Assembly: GCA_022813865.1 (NCBI GenBank)
Contig: JALDZX010000036.1
Location: 124,001 to 188,000, forward strand
Length of the DNA: 64,000 bases
Direction: 5' to 3'
Origin: Xylographa opegraphella
Taxonomy: Eukaryota
This document shows, in pieces, positions 7,026-35,432 of this stretch. A model generated the notes under the pieces. That model made no database searches. It worked only from the letters and a program-made list of their open reading frames with translations, and was not told the DNA's origin. Each line of letters starts with the position of its first letter. Positions within the stretch are counted from its first letter, which is position 1. Both the position numbers and the translations under genes were made by a program.

Positions 7026-7715
7026 ATGCAGCCTTCAACCACAGCCACCTCCAAACGGCGCCGCTTCGCCCAACCCACCACGATCAACAACTACTTCTTC
7101 CCCTCCACCCACCACCCCTCGGCCCCCACAGACGCCATCTCACCCTCCGGCCTCCTCAGCCCCTCCCTCCCAGCGGACGTACAAGCCTCGCTCCTCCAAG
7201 TCGGCATGCGAGTGCGAAAATCCATCCCCGAAGGCTACAAAACCATAGCCCCCACAAACCCCACCGCCACCAAGGCCTCGCCCACGCAAGCCACACCCAG
7301 TAAACCGACAACCAGCGAACTGACCCCCTTCTGCGGCATCCACAAAGTGGGTGGCTACGGCTACCAACTCCACGCCGCCGACGACGACAACGACGCAGAG
7401 TCCATCTTCCCTTCCTCGCAAGAATCCTCCACCTCGTCCATGGCGCCGCCCGCCTCACCACCCACCACCAAGAAACGCGGCTGGTCCGTTGGCTCGGACG
7501 ACCTGGTGGAGAATATTAACGCCTTTCGCGGGTCCATGTCCCCCCCGCCCCTGCGGCCCCTCGCGCAGCCGAAGACGAGGGTCCGCCGCTCGCCGCGGAG
7601 TAATGCGTGGGGCGGCTGCGAGCACGATGTGATGGAGTGGGACGATTTCGAGGAGGCGCATTTCCTGCAGCCGCTGGAGAAGTGGGGGCCCGGGACGTGT
7701 GTGCCGTTTGGGTGA
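7026..7715 (+). CDS. Ribonucleotide reductase inhibitor family protein (Spd1/Dif1/Sml1-like)
   Basis: Hallmark segment DVQASLLQVGMRVRKSIPEGYKT, plus ELTPFCGIHKVGG and C-terminal DDFEEAHFL; otherwise low complexity. Confidence 0.85.
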   Translation: MQPSTTATSKRRRFAQPTTINNYFFPSTHHPSAPTDAISPSGLLSPSLPADVQASLLQVGMRVRKSIPEGYKTIAPTNPTATKASPTQATPSKPTTSELTPFCGIHKVGGYGYQLHAADDDNDAESIFPSSQESSTSSMAPPASPPTTKKRGWSVGSDDLVENINAFRGSMSPPPLRPLAQPKTRVRRSPRSNAWGGCEHDVMEWDDFEEAHFLQPLEKWGPGTCVPFG

Positions 7716-8568: not shown

Positions 8569-10414
8569 TCATATCTGAAGCTCGCGTAATTCATCACCGA
8601 GCTTCGCCAGCTCTTTGACCACATCGTGGTGGAAGCCCGCTTGAAGTTCTGGGTCGCTCAAGTCGTCCCCACACCCAAAGTCGCACTGCAGACATTTCTT
8701 GACGATCTTGCCATAAGCACTTCCCATCTCCCTCCCTATCGAAGAAGCAAGGCGTTTGGCAACGAAGAACTCCGTGTATTTATTCTCTCCTTGCTCGATA
8801 TCAGAGGGTCTTTGTAAGCTAGGTAGAGTCGCCGTAAAGCCTATTTCAAGAAGCAGAACACCAAGGCCGAAGAGCAAAGGATTGGGTGCGAAGGCTCTTG
8901 GTGGAAACGTCGAAGCACGAGCTAGTGCATTGGGGCCTTTGACACTCACACTTAAATGTGGTGGTGAAAGCTCTGGTGGTCGTTCTTGTAGTGTATTTTC
9001 ATCGAACCCAAAGAAGTATATGTCTTCGCTACGCCAAGAGCCCTTGAGCCAAGGAGTAGCATGATATTGTAGCACCGCGACCGCTAGAGAATGTGCAAGT
9101 TGAAGTCTTTCGTACTGAGAGAGCCGAGCCAGCGGACCTTGCTTAGACACAGCCGAGATAACCTGCTCCAGTGAGGTTGCTGGCCGATGGCTGTACCTTG
9201 GAGAAGGCAGTGGGAAATAGATGAGATGCTTATAGCAATCAGTATCGTCAAGCGTTCCGAGACACCGATGTGTCTCTGGGGAGTGTTTGATGCAACTACG
9301 CAGCTGATCACAAAAGTTCTTGCGCATGCACAAGTTCTGGAGTGGCTCATTTACCTTGGCCAGCAAGGTCGGACAGGAGATTGGCGGCGGTAGTGCTGCA
9401 TCGAAACGAACGCTTTTCTTGATCTTCTTAGCAGGAATAGTTTCAGATTGCTCGCCGGATCGCTTGAGGGTTTGGACAAGACTGAAGGAATCCTTTCCCA
9501 ACTGAACAGGATTGCTCTGAGAATGACCAAGTATGGATTCTATCAAGAACCAGATTGGATCACCACTCGAGGCTGAGCCTTGCAGGGTTAGATGTGTGAA
9601 TGCTAGCTTAAACCGTACTTGAGGAGCTCCTTCGTTCTCGATTGCGACTGCATCGAGACAGAAGTGGGTGAGATGCTCGGTGTGCTTGGTACAAGATTTC
9701 CCTAAGGCCTCGTAGACCTTCTGGCTGGCTTTCTGGATCAAGCGGAACCTCTCCACCTCACGATCCAGCTTCCGCGTCGTGAGCTGGGATCGTTCCATGC
9801 GGCGACCCTCCAATTTCGATGTCTGCGCCGACAGAGTTCGAAAATCATCGTTGAGGGACTTGAGATCAATCAAGCTTTCCGAGAGCTTTGATCGTGAGAA
9901 GCTGAATTTGAGCTTCTTGCCAATACGATGTCGCCAGGCTCTATCGCCGATACTACCCTAGAGAGTTCTCTCAGCTACGACAAAAGCCCACACCGACTTC
10001 ACAAAGTATGCTCACAGATTCGCTCTCGATGATGGCCGTCTCAAAATCCGCACTTTCCATCTCCACTTCCTTCAGGTGCTCCTCAATCTCACTTATTATT
10101 GTGATACAAGCGTCCTTGGACGAATCCAGCTGCTGAACGAGCTTATGCTCGAGTCCTTGGTCGTACCAGGACTCGTGATGTTTGTCATCCAGCATTCGCA
10201 CAGCAACCTCATGCTCCACACTCGATTCGAGCAAGATACGACACTCATTGCGGAACACGGTCCTCTGAATCTTCAGCCTTTGTTGAAAGCGATCTAATTT
10301 CGTGGCGAAGTGCCGATAGCGCACGAATGGTTGTAAGCAGTCTTCATAGTGTTCGCACGCCGAGATTAAGAGAGGAAGCACGCCAAGCACAATGCCAACG
10401 GCTTCCGCCATCAT
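8569..10414 (-). CDS. HeLo-like N-terminal domain + degenerate kinase-like C-terminal domain (DUF7580-type), ~595 aa, 2 exons
   Basis: Exon 1 10414-10016 (MAEAVGIVLGVLPLLISACEHY...). Intron 9958-10015 (GTGAGC...GCTGAG...TAG) joins in frame to GSIGDRAWRHRIGKKLKFSFSRSKL. C-terminus has RLQLAHSLAVAVLQYHATPWL..WRSEDIYFF, LFGLGVLLLEIG, MGSAYGKIVKKCLQCDFG. Confidence 0.8.
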
Positions 10415-10767
10415 TCGTTTTATGCTTCTCTACTCGGTGCTCATTTCACGAGGAGCTGGACTCCAGGAACGGACAGAGGTTCTGGACTTTGGAAGTGTTG
10501 CAAGCGGTTGCCCTGGCTGGTTTGCTCGCCGCGTGGCAAAATGCGAGCTTCTATCTGATGATTGGACGAAACGATGGGGTCCCATTTGAAAAACCGGTCT
10601 AGACCAGCAAGGCGCAGCCTCATCGAACTTCCTGGTCACTTCAGCAATACTGGATGCATTGTTTTGATAGAAGGACTTCCAATACTGCAGAGCCCATTTA
10701 GCATGCAAAGCAATAAATATGCATACTATGCCAGAAAGCGTAGTCGCATGTTGAATCTCATATCAAA

Positions 10768-13700
10768 ATGGCGTTGTCAACGAGCCTCGGTCGGTTGATA
10801 ACCAGCGAGTGGATCGACGGCAACAGTTTCAAACGGTCGCAGCCAACAGCATCTGGTGGAGATTTAGTCAATTTGGACTTTGCGGAAGAGCTCTATGAAA
10901 CCATTCTCTCGGTGTTTGCTCAAGTTTGTCGGACATATTCAAAGCCTATCCTACTTTGGAAGCAGCGCCAGTGTAAGGAAGCACTCGGAAGAGTGCATTT
11001 GTGGGGAAGAGATTTCCAAGATGGCAGACTAGCACGCGTACTCGCCCAGTCCGATGATTTAAGGAATACAGTAATCGAGCTTCTTGGGCAGATTGGTAAA
11101 GGGGTCCTTGGTATGTTCCTTGCTCAAGATAGCTCAGGAGTTGCAGACTTATGCCGTTCGTGTATAGATCTCGCAAACCTCGACGATTGCGATAAGAATT
11201 TCGCAGAGCTAGTTCGGGGCCTCAGAAATCTGATCTCTCGGGCCAGAATAATTATTGCTGCCTCTGATCCTTCAGACAGCGATGCCGATGTTGATCTCGT
11301 ATCAGCGCTTCATTTCGGTACCAAGCGGAGAGATCTAGCAAGAGAGAACCGTAGTCCCCGCCGGAAAAGCCTTTCCAGAGGTGTAGAAGGAAAGGAAGAT
11401 CTGCAATATAGCTTCGGTATTTGCTACCATGAAGGCTCTTCATAGATTATTTGCTGACTGGCTATAATCACACCACAAAGAACAGCTAGAGTCAGATATC
11501 GAGCCTGAGACTCGTAGCAGACCTTCTACAGTGAGAGGAGATCAGAGTCCTATGTACACGCCTGAGACTTCCGAGGACGAGGACGAAAGTTCGGATAGTG
11601 GAACACTACTCGAGTGCTCTATCGACTGTTTAATGGATCTAATACCGACTATGGAACAGAGCCTTGCCCATATACAATCCCGAGGAATCCAGACAAAGAC
11701 CTCCTCCCGGGTACCATTCTCGGTTTCCGAACTCGCACTTCCATGGGTGCGAAACGTATCCGATAAGTTTACAAGTGCGGACACTGCACTTGTCGAACGG
11801 CTTGGCGAGGCAAATTGGCAGCGCTATATGACACTTCGTGCTCGAACGGAGCAGAGAATTCAGTCCTTGGACATCAGAAATGTTGCAACTGATAATATCC
11901 CGATGGTTCAAATCTTTCCAACAGCTCCTCAATCAACCTTCAAGCCGCTCTCGCTGTTCCATGATAGTGGTCTGGGCTCTTCGGTACCCACACTTCCTCG
12001 GTACACAATGTCGACAGCCTCGCACACCTCTTTCCTCTCCAGCGTTGCCGGTGATAGTGCCTTAGCACTACGGGTACCTCCGACCCCAGTGGAAGTTGCC
12101 TTAGGCAATCCCTTTGAATGCGATATATGTGGTCACCTGTTATCCAACATCAAAAACCGGGTCGATTGGAAGTGAGTAGAGTCAAATGCCATTTAGACAT
12201 CACAATGCTGATGATCTCACAGAATACATGTCTTTGCAGACCTTCAGCCATATATTTGTACTTTTGACTCTTGCGCTAAAGATTTTATCACTTTTCCTAC
12301 TAGAAGTCTATGGGGATCGCATGAATTTGACGAACACCGGGTCACACGATGCTGGAAATGTCCGGAGTGTGCTCATACCGGGTCAACTGCGCAGATGATG
12401 GAGGAGCATCTTCGGAAACGCCATGGCGAATCCATTACATTGGCACAGCTTCCCCTTATAATTTCAGCTGCCGAAACCAAAAGTCCACTGCCAATTGAAG
12501 ACCAAAGGTGTCCCCTTTGCAAGTGCATTCCAGGAAAATCACAAAGAAACTTTGTGAAACATGTTGGACGACATATGGAATCTTTGGCATTGGCAGTCCT
12601 CCCAAGGGACACTGCTGAAGCCTCGGATCGGAGCTCGAACGGATCAATAGTTCCCCAGGACGAACTACCGAATGAAATATTCTCCATGGATTTGTTGGAA
12701 GGTATATTTTTTGTTCCACCAGATTTCCATCTGCATACCAATCTTAAGGGAAGAGATCAAGAGCTTCAATTACTTGACGAAGGGTTGTTCTCGGCGAAAA
12801 AGGAACACGGCACAGCCGCTGTGCTACTCCACGGTCATACTATTTCCTGCAAACTCCGGCTGGTTCAACATTACATAAACCTAAATCGTAGCAAATTCCC
12901 TGGAGGAATTTTCTGGATTAACAGCAAGTCAAATAAAGAAATTGATGCCTCACTTCTTGTAATTGCTCGCAAATACATTTGGAGTACTGACAAGTCGGAG
13001 ATGCATCCGGATCGTATCGCAAGTAATGTGACAGCTTGGTTTGCGAGCAGAAGCCAGTGGCTAATTGTACTGAACGACGTCAAACCATCATGGTTGAAAC
13101 CAGCAGAAGAGGTAATTGAACGACGATGGCCAACTCCGAATAGTCGACATTCCAGCTTGATCTATATCTCAGGACAGAACAATAGCACCAGTTTCTCTGT
13201 TCCTCTTGATCCAATACCACTTGAGATAAAGCCCTTGCGCAGCACGCGGCCACGGGCATCAGAGCAAAACGAGGTGACGGATATTAGCTCTGCTGACGAG
13301 GGGTTTTCCTTCAGACCAGATTTCGTTCGACAGCCCTCGACGACATTAGAAAAATCAATGATCGACCACGGTTATCAAAATGATGGGCCAGGATCGAGTG
13401 ATGAAAAACAAGTGCACAATCCTACGATTGGAAAACATATCAATAATGGTATGCCAATATTGAAGTATGCCCTTGCACCAGAAGACCATGACGCTCCACG
13501 GTCAACAAACACAGTCCACAGTTCAATAACGGAGTACAGTCATGAGCAACATGAGCCGTCGCCTGATCACGAATCCCTGGCTCCCGGTTTATTCAGTGCC
13601 GAACCTAAGCTTACGCACACTCCTTATGACCATACACCTCGATTACTTGGAAAATTGCCTAATCACTTATCTAACCAATCCACGTTAACTGGCCTCGGCA

Positions 13701-15254
13701 TTTCAGATAAAAATAAACTCCTGGACGTTTCGCGTTCTGAAGGCCCCAAAATCCTGAGCTTCCATGTTCCAGAGTGCTCCGTTAGCTTGGGGAACCTTCT
13801 GGACCACATGTAGGTTGCTTCCGTAATTTGTGAAAGTGTATTAGACTAATCTCGATAATCACAGTGAGCATTGTGAAGAAAGTCATGGCAAAATACCAAA
13901 TAATATATCGAAGCATCTCAACGATCGCAACGGAGAAACAGTGACCCTCCAGGGCCCTCTCCTTTTAGAGCAACCAGTCATGATCACTCCAGAAGTTCCA
14001 CAGCCGAAGCTAGTAAGGCAGAATCTAGGTGTAGACCTATTCCATAAAATCCAAGCACCTACCAGTGGCGATATCTCTCCTTCGGTCACTAAACCTCTTC
14101 GTCAAGATTATCTTTCGTCAGAGCTGGTAAACGGCAACTCCATCCCTGCTACGGATATAGAGAACCAACAAAACCAAGCAGAAGCTCCACAAAAGAAGCA
14201 TAAATGTCCTTATTGCTCAACGATGTTCACGCGGCATCATAACCTGAAGAGCCATCTGCTTACGCACAGCCAGGATAAGCCATGGGTATGTGACAAATGC
14301 GGTACACGATTCAGGCGACTTCATGATCTGAAGCGACATAGAAAGTTACACAGAGATGAGAGGGCCTATGCTTGCTCAGTGTGTAATCGTACCTTTGCCC
14401 GCCTGGATGCTTTGGAGAGGCATTTGAAAACCTCTGGCAGTTGTACGAGCCAAGGTGTTGCTCCCAATAGTCGAGAAAATAATGATGAAAACGTGCAAGA
14501 GAATTGGATAGACAAGATAACGACTTTAGAGGCAAACGAATTCAAGGTAGAAATGTCTTTCGAGATGCACAAGCTCACTACTAATGATTCGCTTCAAGGA
14601 CGTAATAACCGCAGCACTAAATCCCAAAAACGCTACCGAGAAAGACATGATCAGATGCGTCTGTGGACAGAAAGAGTATCCAGGTTTACCTAAGTCAGCC
14701 CGGGATGCCTTTGAGTCGGGCACATATCATAATCGCACGAGAACCTCAGTCCTTACTGTCGATCCGGCGCATCTGGGAAGCTTATTTATCCAATGCGATG
14801 TCTGTAAGGTCTGGCAGCACGGTAATTGCGTCGGCATCTGCAATGCTGCTATGTGCCCTGATACGTATTTCTGCGAGCAATGCGCACCGGCGGATCACAC
14901 CATGAAGTTAGACCCGTCTACTGGGTAAGGCCACGCCAAAGAAACCGAGTCTCTCTTGTTGACCAGAAACACAGATTGATTTTCTCCGACTACTTTCCTG
15001 GTCCCGACTCTCGTCATCGGAGGAGCATACCCTCACAGCCAGACGACAACTCATCTATCCCTCACCCACCTGCGGAGTGGTCGATAACGCCGAGTCGCTC
15101 GCAAACCCGGGCTTCCCAAACATACCCGCCGTCTCACAACGAGTTCCTCGCACGGGCAACGCGCACGCGTAGGTACTCGGGCACCTTGTGGCCAAGATAC
15201 TCGGCGTCCGACGATGAAGCCATGCTCTCCAACAAGGAAGCCGGAGACGCTTGA
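10768..15254 (+). CDS. Multidomain mosaic protein (~1385 aa, 7 exons): helical N-terminus, C2H2-like zinc fingers, degenerate NB-ARC fragment, C2H2 triplet, PHD finger
   Basis: GT-AG introns 11111-11167, 11417-11480, 12172-12222, 13810-13864, 14547-14598 and 14925-14974 all preserve phase and join the successive ORFs into one frame of 4158 nt, with stop TGA at 15254. Confidence 0.7.
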
Positions 15255-15365: not shown

Positions 15366-15532
15366 CCGTCAACACAACCCGTCAACACAACCCGTCAACA
15401 CAACCCGTCAACACAACCCGTCAACACAACCCGTCAACACAACCCGTCAACACAACCCGTCAACACAACCCGTCAACACAACCCGTCAACACAACCCGTC
15501 AACACAACCCGTCAACACAACCCGTCAACACA
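15366..15532. repeat. Perfect 13-bp minisatellite (CCGTCAACACAAC), ~12.8 copies
   Basis: Direct read: 12 identical units plus an 11-bp partial; degenerate GTCAA(T/C)AC precursors just upstream. Confidence 0.97.
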
Positions 15533-15672: not shown

Positions 15673-15771
15673 NNNNNNNNNNNNNNNNNNNNNNNNNNNN
15701 NNNNNNNNNNNNNNNNNNNNNNNNNNNNNNNNNNNNNNNNNNNNNNNNNNNNNNNNNNNNNNNNNNNNNNN
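15673..15771. other. Assembly gap (99 N)
   Basis: Run of N flanked by C-rich low-complexity sequence. Confidence 1.
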
Positions 15772-16032: not shown

Positions 16033-17207
16033 GGATACGAAGGGAGGGAGAGAAGCAGCCCATTAACAAAGCGACGCGGGATACGCGCACGCACGGACGT
16101 AACAAGCCGAAAAGGGGATGGGGATAGGGATGGGGAGGCTCGAGATGGGATAAGTTTCCTTTCAGCTGGGGCGGGGGGGAGTCTACCTACCTTACCTATT
16201 CACCGGGGAAGACGATGACATGATGGATGTGTTGATACCGTACCACTTCGTCGAGACAAGGCGTAGGCGTTTGCGTCGCGTTGGCGCTAGGGTTTGAACA
16301 CGAATGTAGAATCATTCACATACCTACTTTCCTTTAAGCGATTACCTTCGTACCTCGAAGAGCGATAGCGCGGCCAGACCGTAGCATTTACCGTCGATAT
16401 CGAGACACCACACCACTACTTTTTATCTTTGCAAAACAAATCACAGCACAGCATAGCATCACCGAAAATCATCACCGTAACCGAACATGCAAGTAATTTG
16501 CCCAGCCCCAAATCGTTCCATTAATCCCTCCCCCACCCCCCCTCACTCTTTCATGATACACGGGAGAGAGGGGGTTGTGTGCAGAATGAAAAGAAAAAAG
16601 TCCCCGTGCCCGTCACTGTGGAACATCAAACGATTCAAGGGGCGCGCTAAACCCACGCTGCGCAAACCATGAACGCAGTAGAGGTTGCTGTGTGAAAAAA
16701 AGGAGGACCAACAGCGGGAGATACAGAGAGGTAACGCCGTCCGTAGCAATGCGGCCGGCCCCTATACCCGCTGGAGACAAGAGAGCAAGCAGAGCGAAGG
16801 AGATGACGTGAGCCGTCAGGACCAACAGCCACAGAAATGCAAATCGAGCTTTTGATTATGAATCCGCCACCCGTCAATCTATGTGTACATGAAACCTGGG
16901 AGATCTGCAGGGTCTGGTAGCCATCATCCAGTGGGGTGCGGAAATGGACGTGATAATGCCGAAATAGAAGGAGTCGAAGGTTTGAGCGATAAGTCGGAGC
17001 TGTATAGCTCCCTGTTTCGCAACAAACGACTCAAAGGATGTATTGGATGTTTCGTAGGATGCAAGATGGTCGATGTTGCTCTCTGCTGGTACAGATGCTG
17101 TGATATGTCCTAACAAAAAAGAGAGTCGTAATTCCGAGCATTCATAACATTTAACGTATTTGTGTGTTTGAGACCAAAGAGGACCTTTTGAGGTAGGCCA
17201 TGCGCTC

Positions 17208-19918
17208 TCAGAAGAAGTGGGTGTTGAGTTTGGATTCCTCGTGAACTTCCATTTCCTACAGCTTGGTTCAGTAAAGATGAACACACGGACATCCTCGTAC
17301 GACTCACCATTTTGAAGCTGTTGAGCTCCTCTTTGATCTGCTGGGCCAGCATAGGAGTGAGCCGATTGCAAGTAGCGATCTCGCCTCGCCTATCGTACTC
17401 CCCACTGGGCCATGTATCGTGGAACTGGATCCGAGGACTGAAGCTGATATTACGCGATGCCAGGCTCCGTGGTGTGCCCGGTATACTCTTGGAACCGGAG
17501 TCCGCAAACCTTGCAACAGACATGAAATAATCTTCACCTTCAATGGTGACGGAGTCAGTCCGTCGATGACCAGCGCGAGATGCACGATCATCTCCGGGAG
17601 TACTGGGTGCACTCGAATTGGGCGAGTCGGACATACGAGGGATTTGGGGAAGGACAAAGTCGGTATATTTTGTGTCCACTGGTCGGCTTAATGGAGAGGA
17701 GCCGCCAGACTCATTCCCTAGGATGGTTAGCAGGTAGTCTTGGATTGTGAAACTCCACGAACTTTTCAGAATGCCCTTCTTCACGGCAGCCAAGACTTCT
17801 GCCCGCTCTTTCTCGCCGCCTACAATGCTTCGGCGTGGATTGGTGTGGTCACTGCTTCGGTCGCTGAACGACAGCGATGGCTCTACGGCTGCAACACTCA
17901 CAGCGTCGAGAGAATTTCGCTCCAGTCTCGGGAAGCCGGTCCCACCACCGGCTTGGTCGTGGGGATCAGCATTGACATTGACCTTTTCTCGCTCGGCTTC
18001 GACTGTTACCATCGAGACCTGAGCTAGGCTCGGACCGGGAACCGCTGCATCTGCAGCTGGTACACCAATGACCGATTTGGGCCGGAAAAGTCCAACCAAC
18101 GAACGGGTCGACTTCTTCACACCTTTCCCCATTTTCCGGAGCATCACGGATGCAGAGGACGCAGTGGAAGAGATGGAGAGGTTGTCGGTAGAGCCGGTGA
18201 AGAATTGACCTTGTCCGGAGTATATGCCCTCTCCGAGCCCGCTTGCTTCCTGCTTCTGGATAATGGCGGCCTGAGCAGCATCCTGCTCATCCTGCAAGCG
18301 ATCTTTCCGCAGCTTCGCCCGTTCCGTCGAGACATTGATGTTATGACTGTTTTCGGCAGAAGCCTTTCGAAGCTCAGCTGCACTACCAAACGAGAACGCT
18401 CGTCGCAATCTCGACGATTTGCCCTCTTTCTTTCCCTCCTTCTTGTTAAGGGCCGCGAGATGTTGGGCGGCAGGACTCTCCGGAATGTTGGCTGTGGCAT
18501 TGGCGGAGGGGAACGACTTGGGTTGCAGCGCTTCCGGCGGCTGCTGGACGGAGGGGGCCGTCTTGGGGAGGGAGGATCCATGATCCAAAGCCATCGGCTT
18601 CGACAGAGGTGATGGCGATGCGAACCGTTTATTTGCATCTGAGGACCCACGAGGAGGGATGTTGACCAGTTTTGCTTCGTGTTTAGCAATAGCGGTGCCA
18701 TGCATGACAGTGGGGTGGGAAGGAGCTACTCCAACCGTATCTCGCTTGGACTAGAGGCTTGTGGTTAGCGCCACCCCATCAAGGAGGAGGAAGATAACAA
18801 ATTCGTACCGACGACGGTCGTGCAATCGAGTTGAGCGAGCTGGCGCTCTCGTCGCTACCGGTACGAGCATGAGAAACGGGTCGAATGGTGGTTTCGTTCG
18901 CGTTGGCTGGACGGACCAATTGCTTTTCCGGGGCGTACTGAGCTGACGTCACCGATGCATGTGTTTTCCGCTGTTCACCAGCTGCGTGCTCCTTAGGATC
19001 CAGTCTACTGGTGTATTCCCCAACCTCCAGACCGCCAACACTGCGTCGGCGATATCGCTTGGCCTGCTCTGACGACGATTGACGGTTAAGGACCATGTCA
19101 TCTTTACTGGCCATTCGGGACGAGGGTGCAAATGAAGATGATCCGTCTAGGTTTGGTAGGATGGGCATGCCACGATACATCTGCGGCTGCTGAACTGGTG
19201 GAGAGGTAAACTGCATTGGTTGATTGTACAAATGCCCAACAGTTGCCATGCCCGAGCCTGAGGGCAAAGCGGATCCTCCAGATTGTGGGGCCACATACGT
19301 TGCTTGCACGGCATCTACCCGACGCTGCGGACGCCGATAACGATCCGGAGATGGTTTGACGGTCGTTCCCAAGGCGGAGATCTTGGCGTCCGAGAGGTTC
19401 AGTTCCATCGCAGACATCGGCCTCGGGGTGGTGGTCCTGGGGGTCACGATGGCAGAGTCATCTCGTGTTCCAAACGTGAAAGTGGTGGAGAGCGAGTTGG
19501 GACCGTCCTGTACTGGTACGATTGTGGGGGACGATCCCACTTGTCGTTGCCGGGTTTGATTTGTAGAGCCACCCAGGAAGTTCTGTTGAGATAAGGTCAG
19601 AACCGGGTCTGACAACGTACGATCTTCTTGCCGTAGATATGGTGCTGTGGGATTTTGACGAAGAGGATTGACGGCTTGGGGAGCGACGAGTGTGGTTCCC
19701 AAAGCGTATGGAGCCATTGCCGGGACTGACGTTTGGCCTCGATACGTTGTAACCCCATTATTGACACCATAGATTCCTCTTGCCAGCTGCGAGCTACGTA
19801 GCTGCTGCTGACTCTCCCTGCTGGTCAGGAAGGGAGCGGGAGAGGTTGCATCATGACGTGTCTGTAACATCGTGATCGTCGACGATTGCTGTGGGAACGA
19901 TTGAACAAGAGCAGCCAT
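17208..19918 (-). CDS. BNI4: Bni4-like bud-neck/septal PP1-targeting protein (multi-exon)
   Basis: Starts MAALVQSFPQQSSTITMLQTR. Conserved C-terminus ISFSPRIQFHDTWPSGEYDRRGEIATCNRLTPMLAQQIKEELNSFKM|EMEVHEESKLNTHFF*, with stop at 17208-17210. Confidence 0.88.
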
Positions 19919-22900
19919 TTTATTTTTTTATGGTTCGGATATCTGGCAGAAAACAACACACTTCACAAGGTCGTGTTTGTCTCTGAGGATAGGAAAATGA
20001 TGTGGCTTAGACAGTTGCTGAATCGAAGTCCTAAGTTACAAGGTCAAATTCTGAAAGCCATCAGCATACATCTCAACGATCAAGGTGGTAAGAATGCAGA
20101 GCACTTGATGGATCGTGAAATCCAAGAAGCTGTACGGTCAACATAGAATGTAGGAGATTGTGTACCAAGGAAGGTCAAGGAGACAACACGTACAAACTGG
20201 ATGTCCGAATGGAAGCAAGAGCTCGAAGCCGTCAAGGAATGATCTACGAGAAAGTTCGTGACGCTTGTCGAAGGGAACCGATCCGGTCCAGTCAAAGAGC
20301 GGACGAGGTCGACTGTACGTGTACTTCAGCCGCCAGGGTGAGCATGTAAAGCGTCCAAGATCCACAGAGGAAGTCGACGAGAGGATGCACGGGATCACAG
20401 AGGTCCAGGAGCAGGATGTCTAGCAGGTAGACATGATCCTCGACGGACACTTAAGAGTGAGGGGGAAATCTCGACGTTGAGAAGCCTCCTGAAACAGAAG
20501 CGAACGTTCCACCCGGACGGCCGGGATGGGTGGTCAGGAATGGAAAAAAAGAAGAGAGAAAAACAGGAGGACTACGACGGTCCGGAGAGCAGTGAAGGCC
20601 CACGAGCTCTCTACTGCCGACCAAGAAGGGAAAGGGAAGAGGCGATTGGGGGAGTGGGGGAGGGAGGATGGGAGGGAGGAAGTGAGATTGGGTTTGAAGC
20701 AAGAAGAGTCGAGTGACGAGTAAGGTAGATTTCCCTTAGTGTATTGTAGAGTAAGAATTGGAGCGTGCCGGACCGGGGATGGGGGATGGTGGAAGATGAT
20801 TTTGGGGGGTTTTTTTTGACTGCGAGACGAGCTCGAGACAGCGAATCTCCTTTAGCCCACATGAGAGTAACACGCCAAGATTCACGCTCTCGGGGGAGGC
20901 CAGGGGGGGGTTGTTAGGGGGGTTAGGGAGGGTTCTCTTCACTGGACAGTGGACACCTCACTTGAACACGCACAAGCCTTTTTGCCTCTTCAACCCTAGC
21001 TGGGAACCCCCCCCTAGACGGGAATGGTCTGGCGTGCAGCACAGGGGTGTTTCCCGGCGAAGGAGGCCGCTAATTCGCTGCTACACCCGCCCCAGCACAG
21101 TCCAAAAGGGCGTCATCCGGCCGACGGGCTTCCGGCTACGACGCGTTCCACACGGTTTTGATTGCGAAAAGAATGATTGCTGCTGTATCTACTTCGTACT
21201 CCGTATATCCCCCCTCCTCCGCCAAGAAGTGAGCAAGACGTGGATGAGATGTGCGATGAAGTACCCAAGGAGTCAAGAGTCAGAGTCAGCAGGATGGCTC
21301 CCTTGCTCTCACGTGCCCGTGAGGCAGTCCACGGTGTCATAGTTGTCTCCTGTCCTGCCGCGAATACCAACTCACCCAGTCAGCCCAACGATGTGTTAAA
21401 AGGGAAAGATCCAGCGGAGGGGGGAGCACGGTCGAGAAGTAATAATCGTGAATCGCACCACCTTCGACCGTGCTAGCCGTCAGCACAGCCGCCTGAGCCA
21501 GCGAGTCGCGACGGGCGAATGAGAGGTGTGATTCAATACGAAACGCCGCCTAGGGAAAGGGTGAAGGGGGGGGGAATAAAAAATGCGCCTATCGCGACCC
21601 GGTTGGCCCGTGTGCCGGTCCTCACTGTGATTGTTATTACTATTATTCTGGAAATTGGTGAACAATCAATCATGCAAACGGAGGACGCGTCCTGACAATT
21701 TGACAATTAATGGGCTGCTTCTCCTGCGTGTACATCTCCTTGGACTGCTGCACTGCTGCTTCGCCGGATTTAAGACACGAGCCCTCTCGGTATCGCCGCC
21801 GCCGTGGTCATGCTTGGCATCGGCCCGAAAAAGCCCTCGAACTGGGTCAAGATCTCTACGCAGTACAGCGTGGCCAGTACCTTTCAAGTCCATCATTGCG
21901 CTGAGCTGGTGCCATCCCACCGCCGTCGATGCTGGCCAACACCTCAAACCCAAAAGCCAAAAGGCCGCCACACTGCCGGAACGCATGCTGGCCTCTCTCT
22001 CCTCATCTCCCACCGAGCATCTACGGATCCCGGCGGCACGAAAACAGCACCAGAGACACCGACGACGACCTGCAGACGCACTCCCTCCCTCGTAGCTACC
22101 GTACCTTATGTAAACCACCACCCAATGACCATCCGCCCCCCCCTTCCCCCCAACCCACTGCCCTTTTCGCCTATCTGCACTCCGGCCCCAGCGATCCATT
22201 CTCCACCCCATCTTCCATTCGCCCTGCTCTCGCCCCGCACGCTGCACGCGCCTCCCACACCGCATTGGAGCGGTACGACGGCGGGGACCGCGTCAACGGT
22301 CGTGAACCGGACCCCCACTCCATCCGGGCCCCCTGGGTTACGCCTGCGAAAAACCAGGTGTTGCTCTATTCAAGAAGTCGGCGCGACTCCCGGAAGCCAT
22401 GCAAGCTGTGGACGTTGTAGAAAGGATGGATAGATGATGGGTCATGATGACAACTCGAGAATGGGGGCCGAGATGGCGCCTCAGATCTCTCCCATTTAGG
22501 TAGGTACTAGATAGGTAAGGTAGGTCAGCAGCGAATAGAGAGACGGACCTCAGCAGTGGGCCACGACAACACTCGGTCACTAGTGCCGCCCGGTGGTGGT
22601 TTGAGTGGCAGAATGGGAACGCTCGGCTGCATAGCGCCAACATTAAAGCTGCGGGCTCCGTATATATTTCATCATTACGGTGTGGTGTGGTGCCTCGTGA
22701 AATATCCCGTCAAGCACCAAGAGAGCTCGCGGAGAGATTGTGATCATCAATGCTTACCTCACCTTGGGCACTGGGAGTGGGGGGAAGGTGATGGTTGTGT
22801 GGAATAGGCAATGTAGACGGAGACTTCGATGATGATTTCGTTCCTGGGGAAACAGATGTGTATGTAGTCCCGAGTCATTGCCCATGATATGTAGCATATC

Positions 22901-33587: not shown

Positions 33588-35432
33588 ATGGCTGCGACGG
33601 ACGCTATGATTGTTGCTCCCCACGCTGCAGCGGAAGACTATCCTGCCGTTCAAGACGATACTGTTCACGATCTTGTCTACCATGGCAGCTGCAGACGTTG
33701 CAACCATCTACATCAAGCACGAGTCATCCACGTGCCTAGGAACGCGGAAATTTATACCTCTTACGCTTGCGATGCATGCGGCTTATCGATATTCGGTTTC
33801 GGGCGAACCTCTCCTCGAGAGTCTTTAGTCTCACTGATGACAACTTCAAGCTGGCAGTCACGCAGAGACAGTGATCAGGATCTAGCGAGACTCCATCCTT
33901 GCACCGACGATCCAGCGCAAATTGGCCCTTCAGAGAGGCTAGTGGATCCCCCAATCGATCCAAGCAGAGTTACTCGGCACGGGCGTGGCCAAGGCCCGAG
34001 TGTAGCTTCCTCGAGCCGAACGAGACTTTCAGCAAGTGAGACACAGCCGTCTCGCAACCTCGCTACGGTCGATCTCCTACCCGTCCCAGCACCATCACTC
34101 CCGACGCACGCTGTATCACAAGCTCCAACATTAACAAGCGACCCTGAAGGCTCTTACGAGCACGACTCTTCCATCCGGGATCTCTCGCAACCTGGGCCAA
34201 CTTCTCCGGTGAGGAAAATGATCAATCATTTTCGCGATGTCCGGCGAAGAATCCCGTGGCGTAGTTTAAGATCTCGTGAACGAAGTCACCGCGGAACGAA
34301 CCAGCCGGCTATAGGACGCTTGGTCAGGCATGTTGGTACCATGACTGATGAGGTACTTTTTTCTGACCGTCCTGCGGAGGCTATCGCGGTTCCTCATGGC
34401 ATTGACGAATCTGTGGCACCTCAGTCGGCTGTGATTGATGCTCAGTCTGGAACCCCTGGTGTAGTAGAGCATACGCAACCCGATGAGGTTATAGAAGAAC
34501 ACGCAGACCAACATGCTTCAAAACGAGAAAGACTGGATGTGAAACGACGGCAGACAACGCTACACCGGAAGGCGCTTCAACAGCCGCGCTGCCTATGCGG
34601 TGACGGGTGCCAGTGTATGGGGTCGAAGAGGACCACTGTTGCAGGGTCTCTGACATCAAGACGTAGATCTATTGTGCCTACGCATCCGTTCGAACATCTA
34701 CTGTTCCACGAATCTGAAACATCCTCCTCCTCAATACAAGAGGCCCCTCCGCATCAACATAGCCAGGAGAGACATGTGGCTTTCACGGGAGCTGGTCTGG
34801 ACAATACCCATCCAACAGGCCAAGGCCCAGCTGTTGAGAGGCTGTTGGGCGAAGAGTTCCGCTTCAGCCGCCAGAGCACATCGACCAGTGCAACTCATGA
34901 CAGCCAAGCCACGACGGCTATCAACAGCAGCAGCTCTGGAGATCGAAGCAGTCGGCAGTACAGTACTCGAGCCAACAGTCTGCCCTTGCAACCATTCGTC
35001 GAGTTGCTCAATCAATACCTCGAACAATCTCGACCGGAAGTGGTGGCGGCCCTCCGTAACTTTCATGCGGTACATCCACCAGAACGCGTCTTGGCATTAT
35101 CGGAGACGGCTTCGGTCCGAGACGGTCACAGTCGTACGGCCAGCCCCTCGGGAGGCCTGGTTGATCGTCCGTCGACTCCACAACGCGCCAGCACGATCAG
35201 CCTGTCGCATCTACCGGATCCGAGTGACGAGCAGGAAGGTCGTGCGTCCGAAGACAATAGTGCTCAGACCTCTGGTGCTCCGACGATCATACGTGCAGGT
35301 GAGAGCTCGCAGATGACACCAACGGCACAAAACCATGATCAAGGTCCGCCAGCACCTCCGGAGCAGCAAGTGAGCCCGGATGCGTTGGCTAGTGAAATCG
35401 AACGGCTGGCATCGTCGTCTACGGAAACGTGA
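33588..35432 (+). CDS. Hypothetical, largely disordered protein with an N-terminal CxxC..CxxC Zn-ribbon-like motif and an internal CxCxxxCxC motif
   Basis: 614-codon intronless ORF from the first ATG; GSCRRCNHLH...YACDACGLSIFGFGRTS; CLCGDGCQC. Confidence 0.7.
   Translation: MAATDAMIVAPHAAAEDYPAVQDDTVHDLVYHGSCRRCNHLHQARVIHVPRNAEIYTSYACDACGLSIFGFGRTSPRESLVSLMTTSSWQSRRDSDQDLARLHPCTDDPAQIGPSERLVDPPIDPSRVTRHGRGQGPSVASSSRTRLSASETQPSRNLATVDLLPVPAPSLPTHAVSQAPTLTSDPEGSYEHDSSIRDLSQPGPTSPVRKMINHFRDVRRRIPWRSLRSRERSHRGTNQPAIGRLVRHVGTMTDEVLFSDRPAEAIAVPHGIDESVAPQSAVIDAQSGTPGVVEHTQPDEVIEEHADQHASKRERLDVKRRQTTLHRKALQQPRCLCGDGCQCMGSKRTTVAGSLTSRRRSIVPTHPFEHLLFHESETSSSSIQEAPPHQHSQERHVAFTGAGLDNTHPTGQGPAVERLLGEEFRFSRQSTSTSATHDSQATTAINSSSSGDRSSRQYSTRANSLPLQPFVELLNQYLEQSRPEVVAALRNFHAVHPPERVLALSETASVRDGHSRTASPSGGLVDRPSTPQRASTISLSHLPDPSDEQEGRASEDNSAQTSGAPTIIRAGESSQMTPTAQNHDQGPPAPPEQQVSPDALASEIERLASSSTET

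Follow-up and report, generated by a model that had tools for sequence, protein, structure and literature searches.

A conserved head-to-head pair of a predicted MLKL-like DUF7580 gene and a variable-domain zinc-finger gene in Xylographa and related fungi

The locus and its gene models

The subject of this study is a pair of divergently transcribed genes at positions 8,569 to 15,254 of a 64,000-nucleotide stretch of DNA (hereafter the window; contig JALDZX010000036.1, positions 124,001 to 188,000 of the forward strand) from Xylographa opegraphella, a lichen-forming Lecanoromycete of the Baeomycetales. The minus-strand gene, here called gene A, encodes a DUF7580 protein that is modelled as a helical bundle followed by a kinase-like domain, and the plus-strand gene, gene B, encodes a zinc-finger protein with an N-terminal part that is widely conserved and a set of added domains that differs among lineages. 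The pairing recurs in related fungi, and the locus is best explained as a conserved two-gene module and not as a pair of NOD-like receptors (NLRs).

An earlier reading of the sequence alone (the original prediction) had placed two genes here with their ATGs about 350 bp apart, and the gene models agree with it, the exact spacing being 353 bp (Table 1). The gene A model is the same protein as the annotated X. opegraphella protein P0137, which is one residue shorter (594 aa) and uses the second ATG, and the seven-exon model of gene B reproduces P0121 (MMC26_005187, 1385 aa, a hypothetical protein), with 100% identity over exon 3. The C2H2-like motif interrupted by the intron at 13810-13864 is conserved in four congeners, which argues that the part with the nucleotide-binding domain (NBD) and the part with the C2H2 and PHD fingers belong to one transcript. 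The frames of gene B are intact across all seven exons in the window species and in four congeners.

Table 1. Features of the divergent gene pair and its surroundings in the window, and conservation of gene B by block
Feature	Position	Strand	Description
RNR_inhib left neighbour	7026-7715		Pfam E 2e-22
Gene A	8569-10414	minus	2 exons, 595 aa (direct sequence reading)
Gene A exon 1	10414..10016	minus	133 aa; modelled N-terminal helical bundle, hydrophobic first helix AVGIVLGVLPLLISA
Gene A intron	10015..9958	minus	58 nt, GTGAGC...CTGAG...TAG; spliced product equals orthologues P0001 and P0137
Gene A exon 2	9957..8572, stop 8569-8571	minus	462 codons plus stop; modelled brace helices and kinase-like domain
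Gene A kinase-like fold	~8572-9732	minus	structure model
Gene A DUF7580 match	~8662-9336	minus	Pfam
Divergent intergenic region	10415-10767	none	353 bp between the two ATGs; putative bidirectional promoter
Gene B	10768-15254, ATG 10768, stop 15252-15254	plus	7 exons, 1385 aa
Gene B exons 1a and 1b	10768-11110 and 11168-11416	plus	conserved N-domain, LGR.HLWGRDF motif
Gene B intron between exons 1a and 1b	11111-11167	plus	57 nt, in-frame
Gene B exon 2	11481-12171	plus	acidic linker, 'mid' block (~11594-12118), first acuF-like zinc finger
Gene B exon 3	12223-13809	plus	remaining acuF-like zinc fingers (to ~12680), truncated NB-ARC-type core (~12698-13309), disordered poorly conserved stretch
Degenerate Walker A, GHTISCKL	12833-12856	plus	aligned to GQAGSGKS (P0127) and to Xylographa orthologues
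Degenerate Walker B, LIVLND	13061-13078	plus	relatives have LIVFDG or LLVFDG
Gene B exon 4	13865-14546	plus	three C2H2 fingers, ~14199-14435
Gene B exon 5	14599-14924	plus	PHD finger, ~14647-14898
Gene B exon 6 (last)	14975-15254	plus	poorly conserved tail and stop codon
Minisatellite	15366-15532	none	13 bp (CCGTCAACACAAC) x 12.8 copies, 100% matches; context, outside the module
N-domain	gene B residues 1-135		identity among congeners 70-79%
Acidic linker	gene B residues 136-235		identity among congeners 42-55%
'Mid' block	gene B residues 236-410		identity among congeners 74-85%
acuF-like zinc-finger module (PF26082, precomputed)	gene B residues 411-580		identity among congeners 77-80%
NB-ARC-type core	gene B residues 590-790		identity among congeners 57-72%
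Disordered stretch	gene B residues 791-950		identity among congeners 20-37%
Three C2H2 fingers	gene B residues 1066-1150		identity among congeners 22-68%
PHD finger	gene B residues 1195-1290		identity among congeners 44-67%
Tail	gene B residues 1291-1385		identity among congeners 14-30%

Conserved linkage of the two genes

Metagenome contigs were scanned with an alignment of gene A, yielding 48 loci, which were sorted into 26 groups, namely 22 clusters at 95% or above and four partial loci. Nine groups had upstream DNA too short for the linkage test, and in 15 of the 17 testable ones the upstream gene on the opposite strand was a homologue of the gene B N-domain, mid block or zinc fingers. For two of the 15 the partner emerged only when the search was made more sensitive (L042, E 1e-8; L045, weak at E 3e-4), and in the two partnerless groups, L036 and L040, only the DUF7580 part of gene A matches. 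Gene A of the metagenome loci was 29-53% identical to that of the window over the best tblastn segment, and 31-64% identical over the C-terminal 214 aa only. The divergent arrangement persists where gene A identity falls to about 29-35%. In many loci the intron following '...NRVDWK' occupies the same position. Besides the pair, the only window genes common to loci were those at 17113 (w17113) and 18782 (w18782), found in the L005 group and in L028.

Among named genomes, the two genes carry consecutive locus tags on one contig in X. opegraphella (5186/5187), X. soralifera (2660/2659), X. bjoerkii (6521/6520), Lambiella insularis (7780/7781) and Heterodermia aff. obscurata (9577/9578). The same divergent linkage in relatives, which the original prediction had proposed as a check, was found in 15 of the 17 testable metagenome groups, and consecutive tags in these five genomes, X. 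pallens being the exception.

Gene A: a kinase-like domain behind a helical bundle

The sole Pfam domain of gene A is DUF7580 (PF24476), which it matches at E 1.4e-24 with 87.7 bits (cut-off 27); the Pfam search gave no Pkinase match, and no nucleotide-binding domain was detected. Exon 2 found 242 relatives at E <=0.001 with 8000 candidates scored, and all 120 of those listed carry PF24476. Identity over this exon was 91% in two other Xylographa species, 75% in Lambiella and 44-49% in Alectoria, Physcia, Lecanora, Sticta and others, and the gene is well conserved, with one orthologue per named species among the 120 best matches. Our literature search found no paper with the term 'DUF7580'.

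To characterise the fold, a full-length model was built with AlphaFold2 from P0137 and 25 orthologues; its mean predicted local distance difference test score (pLDDT) was only 63, but it was good over most of the C-terminal domain, which holds a long disordered insert at model residues 278-345. The roughly 40 Foldseek matches listed for this model were all kinases or pseudokinases (probability 0.89-1.0, E about 1e-3), and chains of LIMK2, PAN3 and the MLKL pseudokinase were among them. Similarly, all 50 rows listed by the VIA search were kinases, with Z between 9.5 and 10.7 and 152-199 residues aligned over model residues ~208-594; the best was ROS1 (Z 10.7, root-mean-square deviation (rmsd) 4.8, 199 residues aligned, model residues 219-594). 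At the level of sequence, a search of the PDB with the gene A profile gave 16 matches, all at E >=0.14 (RAD52, SNAP-25), and neither a kinase nor a HeLo domain was among them. After the alpha-E-like helix gene A reads PWLKGSWRSEDIYFF, with KGP at the DFG position, as placed from the secondary structure of the model and not from a residue-level structural alignment, and the presumed catalytic loop, placed in the same manner, reads WLKGSWRSEDIYFF. Because this reading shows no recognisable catalytic motifs, we class the domain as a putative pseudokinase.

The N-terminus of gene A opens with a run of hydrophobic and small residues, AVGIVLGVLPLLISA, and continues in the models as a helical bundle. 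This part was modelled separately on residues 1-259 of L001, an orthologue that has no intron and is 46-51% identical to the window protein; with 43 sequences the model reached a pLDDT of 83 and a predicted template modelling score of 0.70, and consists of a bundle of long helices followed by two more helices. A VIA search of 48,161 representative chains, of which 50 rows were shown and for which the tool cautions that a helical bundle scoring below about Z 13 may be a generic match, returned seven coiled-coil (CC), MLKL or HeLo entries: the CC of Rx (Z 10.3, rmsd 2.3, 106 residues aligned), MLKL 4btf (Z 8.9, rmsd 2.6, 100 aligned), AtMLKL3 (Z 8.8, rmsd 3.6, 137 aligned), the MLKL N-terminal domain 6ux8 (Z 8.3, rmsd 2.9, 117 aligned), MLA13 (Z 8.1, rmsd 3.4, 117 aligned), the CC-R of NRG1.1 (Z 7.6, rmsd 4.0, 108 aligned) and the N-terminal domain of HET-S (Z 6.5, rmsd 3.7, 124 aligned). 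In the ESM Atlas, residues 1-200 of gene A adjoin a HeLo (PF14479) cluster with a score of 0.95 and 185 shared features, a measure that is uncalibrated for parts of proteins, and Pfam found no HeLo or HeLo-like match (PF14479, PF17111) in exon 1 of the window gene at E up to 5.

On these models gene A is likely to have an MLKL-like layout, and the resemblance of its N-terminus to the HeLo family is suggestive without being proof of membership. The original prediction had described a HeLo-like/pseudokinase gene, and here its two halves fared differently: the kinase-like fold was recovered by both Foldseek and VIA, whereas the N-terminal bundle resembles the four-helix bundle of MLKL, plant CC domains and HET-S at scores below the level of certainty for helical bundles and has no HeLo match at the Pfam threshold.

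Gene B: a conserved platform with lineage-variable additions

Within Xylographa, gene A is 91% identical between species, the core blocks of gene B 70-85%, and its added domains only 20-72% (blocks in Table 1). The zinc-finger module of the conserved part is assigned to PF26082 (acuF-like C2H2 zinc finger) in the precomputed annotation of P0121 and its relatives, and was not reported as such by our local Pfam scan; literature on acuF and zinc fingers yielded only papers on the unrelated acuF of gluconeogenesis. Exon 3 matched 3290 proteins at E <=0.001, and most of the 150 listed were matched over query residues 1 to ~140. An assignment of the N-domain to a condensin or HEAT type (ESM Atlas 0.92) was set aside, its recognition value of 1540 being below the trusted level.

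In X. opegraphella the additions to gene B are a truncated NB-ARC-type core, three C2H2 fingers (Pfam E 5e-15) and a PHD finger (E 2.5e-5). The first of these matches, over 12698-13240, the NB-ARC/NACHT proteins P0127, P0128, P0129 and P0131 at E 1e-22 to 1e-8, and it is 35-37% identical to P0127 and P0128 (Pfam NB-ARC, NACHT, AAA_16) at E 1e-22; Pfam itself yields only a weak AAA_16 match (E 0.013). The Walker A of its NB-ARC relatives reads GQAGSGKS or GVPGSGKT. The congeners of X. opegraphella have GHTVSSKF, GHTESCKV, GQPWSGKV and, in X. trunciseda, GPHLSGKS, only the last of which is canonical (GxxxxGK[ST]), and the Walker B aspartate is replaced in all five Xylographa (LIVLN or LIVLW) as compared with LIVFD or LLVFD in P0127 and P0129. 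Similarity to P0127 stops at residue 206 of that protein, before the ARC1 region, and the next 160 residues of gene B are 20-37% identical among congeners. Neither an NB-ARC Pfam match at E up to 5 nor WD40, TPR or ANK repeats were found in gene B.

More distant exon fragments, P0146 and P0192, retain GEPGSGKT, which indicates that the core descends from a working NTPase and has decayed. An exon fragment of the gene B family, P0151 from ENA, holds two NB-ARC-type cores in tandem, the first with a near-canonical P-loop (GPLGSGKA) and the second with a degenerate one (GPPDCGIS). In none of the 48 related loci was NBD-like sequence detected at E <=0.01, and the Lambiella partner has zinc fingers and a PHD finger only, without an NBD. 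The NB-ARC piece is thus a lineage-specific addition and not the engine of a sensor and, judged by its motifs, it cannot act as a STAND (signal transduction ATPases with numerous domains) switch. The P-loop had been called dead in the original prediction, as the Walker A of gene B (GHTISCKL) bears out, and its label of a P-loop-dead NB-ARC mosaic is an accurate description, with the amendment that the core is truncated and lacks ARC subdomains and repeats.

The part of gene B that follows the zinc-finger module is replaced by other domains in related loci: bromodomain, Zn_clus and C2H2 in L001, Myb in L006 and L028, La in L030, ARID and Zn_clus in L033, DUF7896 and CRC_subunit in L038, GATA in L018, and Zn_clus and GATA in L024. 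A CRC_subunit domain is also present in the gene B orthologues of other Xylographa and not in that of X. opegraphella, and additional members of the family carry PHD, PFU, Clr5, tandem PH, Pkinase, Myb, or RRM and SH3 domains. In L018, L024 and L030 the added domain lies within the open reading frame (ORF) of the zinc-finger module itself, so these mosaics are not annotation artefacts. That the C-terminal domains of the plus-strand partner would vary across relatives had been anticipated by the original prediction, and the range found (bromodomain, Myb, GATA, Zn2Cys6, ARID, La, CRC_subunit, PHD and others) agrees with it.

A further stretch of the window, at 33609-33791, gave a 33-42% identical tblastn match to a Cys-rich stretch of P0124 from X. 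bjoerkii (residues 1489-1552) and P0125 from X. trunciseda (residues 1259-1328). Gene B of X. opegraphella lacks this Cys-rich stretch, and the ORFs at 33609-33791 have no Pfam match. This stretch of the window may have been the source of another captured piece, or may be a paralogue of it. It was also considered as a CRC_subunit paralogue, which we rejected, since it aligns to the Cys-rich stretch past the C2H2 fingers and Pfam finds nothing there.

Intergenic footprint and predicted complex

Of 17 intergenic sequences examined, 15 carry a footprint, ACAGCC(T)/GCACAGCC, upstream of the gene A ATG; it lies 66-330 nt away in 14 of these, and in L024 the distance is 443 nt. The best 7-mer occurred in 10 of 12 intergenic sequences against at most 6 in 200 shuffles, a count that is inflated by related sequences. 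The intergenic region of the window itself contains only one-mismatch copies of GCACAGCC, at 10612 and 10687. The footprint may be a cis-element of a shared promoter.

Complex modelling of the pair, another check named in the original prediction, gave a positive outcome: gene A (594 aa) with residues 1-400 of gene B scored 0.75, compared with 0.30 for the best of three controls. The mark used in this test was reached by 51 of 78 solved complexes and by 2 of 108 mismatched pairs and, among eukaryotes, by 39 of 65 solved pairs for which older structures hold no similar complex, as opposed to 2 of 126 unrelated pairs. The runs shared at least 36% of their contacts, with a partner pLDDT of at least 52, and the confident predicted contacts join residues 47-101 and 239-264 of gene B to residues 37-75, 165-181, 408-413, 537-547 and 585-594 of gene A. 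This modelling supports binding between the two products and does not show it. The idea that the interface coincides with the best-conserved motifs found no support in the conservation of the contact residues, which is given below with the other points that weigh against our interpretation.

Chromosomal context

The block is bordered as the original prediction had described it, with the gene for an RNR inhibitor as left neighbour (Table 1), with a content of G and C (GC) of 0.45-0.51 across 8.5-15 kb compared with 0.53-0.61 at 6-8 kb, and with the minisatellite and an assembly gap at its right end. The lowest GC in the block (0.45-0.46) lies at 12000-14500 and coincides with exon 3 of gene B. 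Repeat-induced point mutation was considered as the cause of the low GC and rejected, as no signature was seen (TpA/ApT 0.56-0.76, (CpA+TpG)/(ApC+GpT) 1.15-1.77). Beyond the minisatellite, C/A-rich degenerate repeats run into the gap of 99 N at 15673-15771, and because this gap lies directly downstream of the gene B stop, the assembly does not give the true distance to the next gene.

On the far side of the gap, the minus-strand ORFs at 17113-18750 and 18782-19927 have counterparts with 67-74% identity, lying to the same side of the pair, in L006, L007, L010, L011, L022 and L028, and neither has a Pfam match. These conserved ORFs at 17110-19927 point to a stable chromosomal position in part of the Lecanoromycetes. 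The ORF at 17110-18705 had been labelled 'BNI4'; it has no Pfam match, and that label was not confirmed.

Interpretation and alternatives

The two architectures, the conserved linkage, the variability of the gene B domains and the predicted A-B interface are the observations to be explained, and in our judgement genes A and B probably form a functionally coupled pair whose products interact. The fuller reading, in which gene B restrains gene A, or senses for it, and gene A is an MLKL-like executioner, is plausible, and we put it a little short of an even chance. A guard or decoy switch over a membrane-attack protein best fits this reading as its most economical mechanism, and for it we infer binding in vivo, release, membrane attack and an immune role. 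The conserved N-module of gene B would bind the C-lobe of the gene A pseudokinase and its bundle and brace helices, holding gene A inactive, and the variable, mostly nuclear-protein-like domains of gene B would serve as baits or sensors. When these domains are disturbed gene A would be released, and the released protein would oligomerise and damage membranes, leading to regulated cell death.

A more specific version of the sensor and executioner reading can be offered tentatively. In it the pair would be a surveillance system of the Pezizomycotina built without NLRs, in which the gene B platform displays duplicated pieces of the fungus's own nuclear, RNA-binding and signalling proteins as baits and is physically coupled to the MLKL-like gene A, and tampering by mycoviruses or by bacterial or mycoparasite effectors releases gene A. 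If so, the dead NB-ARC core in Xylographa would be one more captured bait or a relic, and decoy-based sensing and MLKL-type killing would be separable from NLRs.

Several of our results weigh against this interpretation. With regard to gene A, unrelated bundles scored as well in the VIA search as the cell-death domains did (IncA at Z 10.5, THATCH at Z 9.9-10.4), all of them below about 13; Foldseek found no match for the L001 N-terminal model at E <=0.001, the best being a chain of the gamma-tubulin complex at E 0.05; and 3 of the 43 N-termini matched Pfam families faintly, none at threshold (two HeLo, best E 0.18; one PigL_N, E 0.0026). The pseudokinase status is an inference from motifs, and from its 120 best matches gene A does not look like a member of an expanded, fast-evolving family. 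With regard to the pair, 7 of 44 neighbouring genes drawn blind also passed the complex test, conservation at the predicted contacts does not exceed that of the remaining residues (0.62 vs 0.63 for A, 0.64 vs 0.64 for B), and X. pallens, the sole counter-example among the named genomes, has the two genes on different contigs. Finally, most of the added domains of gene B, as identified from their sequences, are binders of DNA, chromatin or RNA, which would also fit a genuine nuclear regulator.

This last point leads to the main rival, in which the module has no part in cell death: gene B would be a nuclear or chromatin regulator with functional domains, and gene A a scaffold pseudokinase that controls the localisation or activity of B, with its helical N-terminus as a coiled-coil interaction domain. 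We consider this account less likely, although it has a good deal in its favour, as nuclear binders make up nearly all of the additions (C2H2, PHD, Myb, GATA, Zn_clus, ARID, bromodomain, CRC_subunit), gene A is conserved and single per named species among the 120 best matches, the matches of its bundle lie within the generic helical-bundle range, and the predicted complex fits equally well. However, orthologous regulators do not normally swap their class of DNA-binding domain between related lineages in the way that gene B does, and non-nuclear additions exist too (SH3, PFU, tandem PH, kinase, dead NBD). The seven CC, MLKL and HeLo entries among the 50 VIA rows shown from 48,161 chains, together with the HeLo neighbour in the ESM Atlas, also count against this rival.

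It is improbable, in our estimate, that the locus is an allorecognition (het-like) or selfish killer/antidote pair, with gene A as the killer and gene B as an allele-specific inhibitor whose rapid change would reflect incompatibility or drive and not the sensing of pathogens. Such a pair would be tightly linked and divergent with products that bind, as is seen or predicted here, gene B evolves much faster than gene A, and fungal cell-death systems are often clusters of two or three genes according to the available part of a recent review (PMC12881547). The pair nevertheless occupies a stable syntenic position in several lineages, with the ORF at 17110 (ORF17110) as a neighbour, and it has been kept over deep divergence, unlike drive elements. 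Still less probable is the absence of any functional link, in which the adjacency would be inherited synteny and gene B a decaying mosaic made by fusion. The low GC and poor conservation in the distal half of gene B and the separate contigs in X. pallens would agree with such decay, but the pair stays together even where none of the other neighbours is conserved (15 of 17 testable groups), the frames are intact over seven exons here and in four congeners, the complex test was passed, and an intergenic footprint is common to 15 of the 17 intergenic sequences.

A plant-type paired NLR system with the P-loop-dead NB-ARC protein as sensor NLR, which was how the original prediction had framed the locus, we consider very improbable and do not retain: the gene B core is homologous to NB-ARC proteins (E 1e-22) and the motifs kept in P0146 and P0192 (GEPGSGKT) and in X. 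trunciseda (GPHLSGKS) speak for descent from a working NTPase, but Walker A and B are lost, the match to P0127 breaks off at residue 206 of that protein, short of the ARC1 motif region, Pfam detects neither NB-ARC (E up to 5) nor repeats, the core was not found in the partner at any of the 48 loci (E <=0.01) or in that of Lambiella, and gene A has no NBD.

Comparison with known systems

Regulated cell death in fungi is known chiefly from NLR/HeLo amyloid clusters and from gasdermin/protease pairs. How the diverse fungal cell-death sensors are activated is named as a major open question in the part of a 2025 review that was available (PMC12881547). Against this background, the A-B pair is a defined and widely conserved candidate, with a full MLKL layout predicted in the putative executioner, a controller that is not an NLR, and variable domains that hint at what might be sensed. 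It is also compact, comprising two genes, a putative promoter of 353 bp and a predicted interface with named residues, so that it could be transferred to a model fungus or to yeast.

Gene A follows the same order as MLKL and the plant MLKL-like proteins (AtMLKL1-3, Pm13), in which an N-terminal helical bundle is joined by connecting helices to a C-terminal kinase-fold domain, here without recognisable catalytic motifs. It differs from MLKL in having no detectable sequence similarity to kinases or to MLKL (PDB profile search, Pfam), in the long disordered insert of its kinase-like domain (model residues 278-345), and in its partner, which is a zinc-finger protein encoded next door and not a kinase of the RIPK3 type. 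The available part of the same review (PMC12881547) mentions fungal proteins in which a HELL domain is combined with a kinase or pseudokinase domain, so the architecture of gene A as such is not new.

The fungal NLR/HeLo clusters NWD2/HET-S and PNT1/HELLP are likewise described there (PMC12881547, in part) as two-gene systems, in which a putative membrane-attack helical domain adjoins a putative controller gene. In contrast to those clusters, gene B is not a working NLR, having no NBD in most lineages and no repeats, and the putative executioner, gene A, carries a putative pseudokinase instead of a prion-forming tail. No amyloid signalling motif was noticed in the pair, though no search was aimed at one. 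The nearest relatives of the added core are fungal NB-ARC proteins of the P0127/P0129 type: residues ~590-790 of gene B are homologous to their nucleotide-binding core, with 36% identity to P0127, and the FFVPP.F lead-in and the GGIFWI motif are common to both. In gene B, however, Walker A and B are degenerate, and unrelated sequence stands in place of the ARC subdomains and of all that follows them.

Plant paired NLRs with integrated decoys (RRS1/RPS4, RGA5/RGA4) offer the closest parallel in arrangement, being likewise head-to-head with a short shared promoter, one conserved partner and another whose host-type domains change between lineages, as described in the available part of PMC12258605. 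Unlike in those pairs, neither the gene A nor the gene B product is a functional NLR, and the platform that bears the added domains in gene B consists of the N-domain and the acuF-like zinc-finger module. In the Sordariales, head-to-head NLR pairs are reported to be rare (13 of 225 two-NLR clusters in the available part of PMC12258605), and zinc-finger, SPRY and kinase domains have been proposed as integrated decoys in NLRs of that order, as gathered from the available parts of PMC12881547, PMC12258605 and PMC9815663 together. Within the portions of the literature found on fungal MLKL-like proteins, HeLo domains and integrated decoys, including these three papers, the A-B pairing is not described.

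What is new here is the conserved divergent pairing of an MLKL-like DUF7580 gene with a variable-domain zinc-finger gene, which suggests a two-gene sensor-and-killer switch that has not been described before. If the bait reading of gene B is true, the principle of the integrated decoy would apply beyond plant NLRs, to another kind of protein platform and in a second kingdom.

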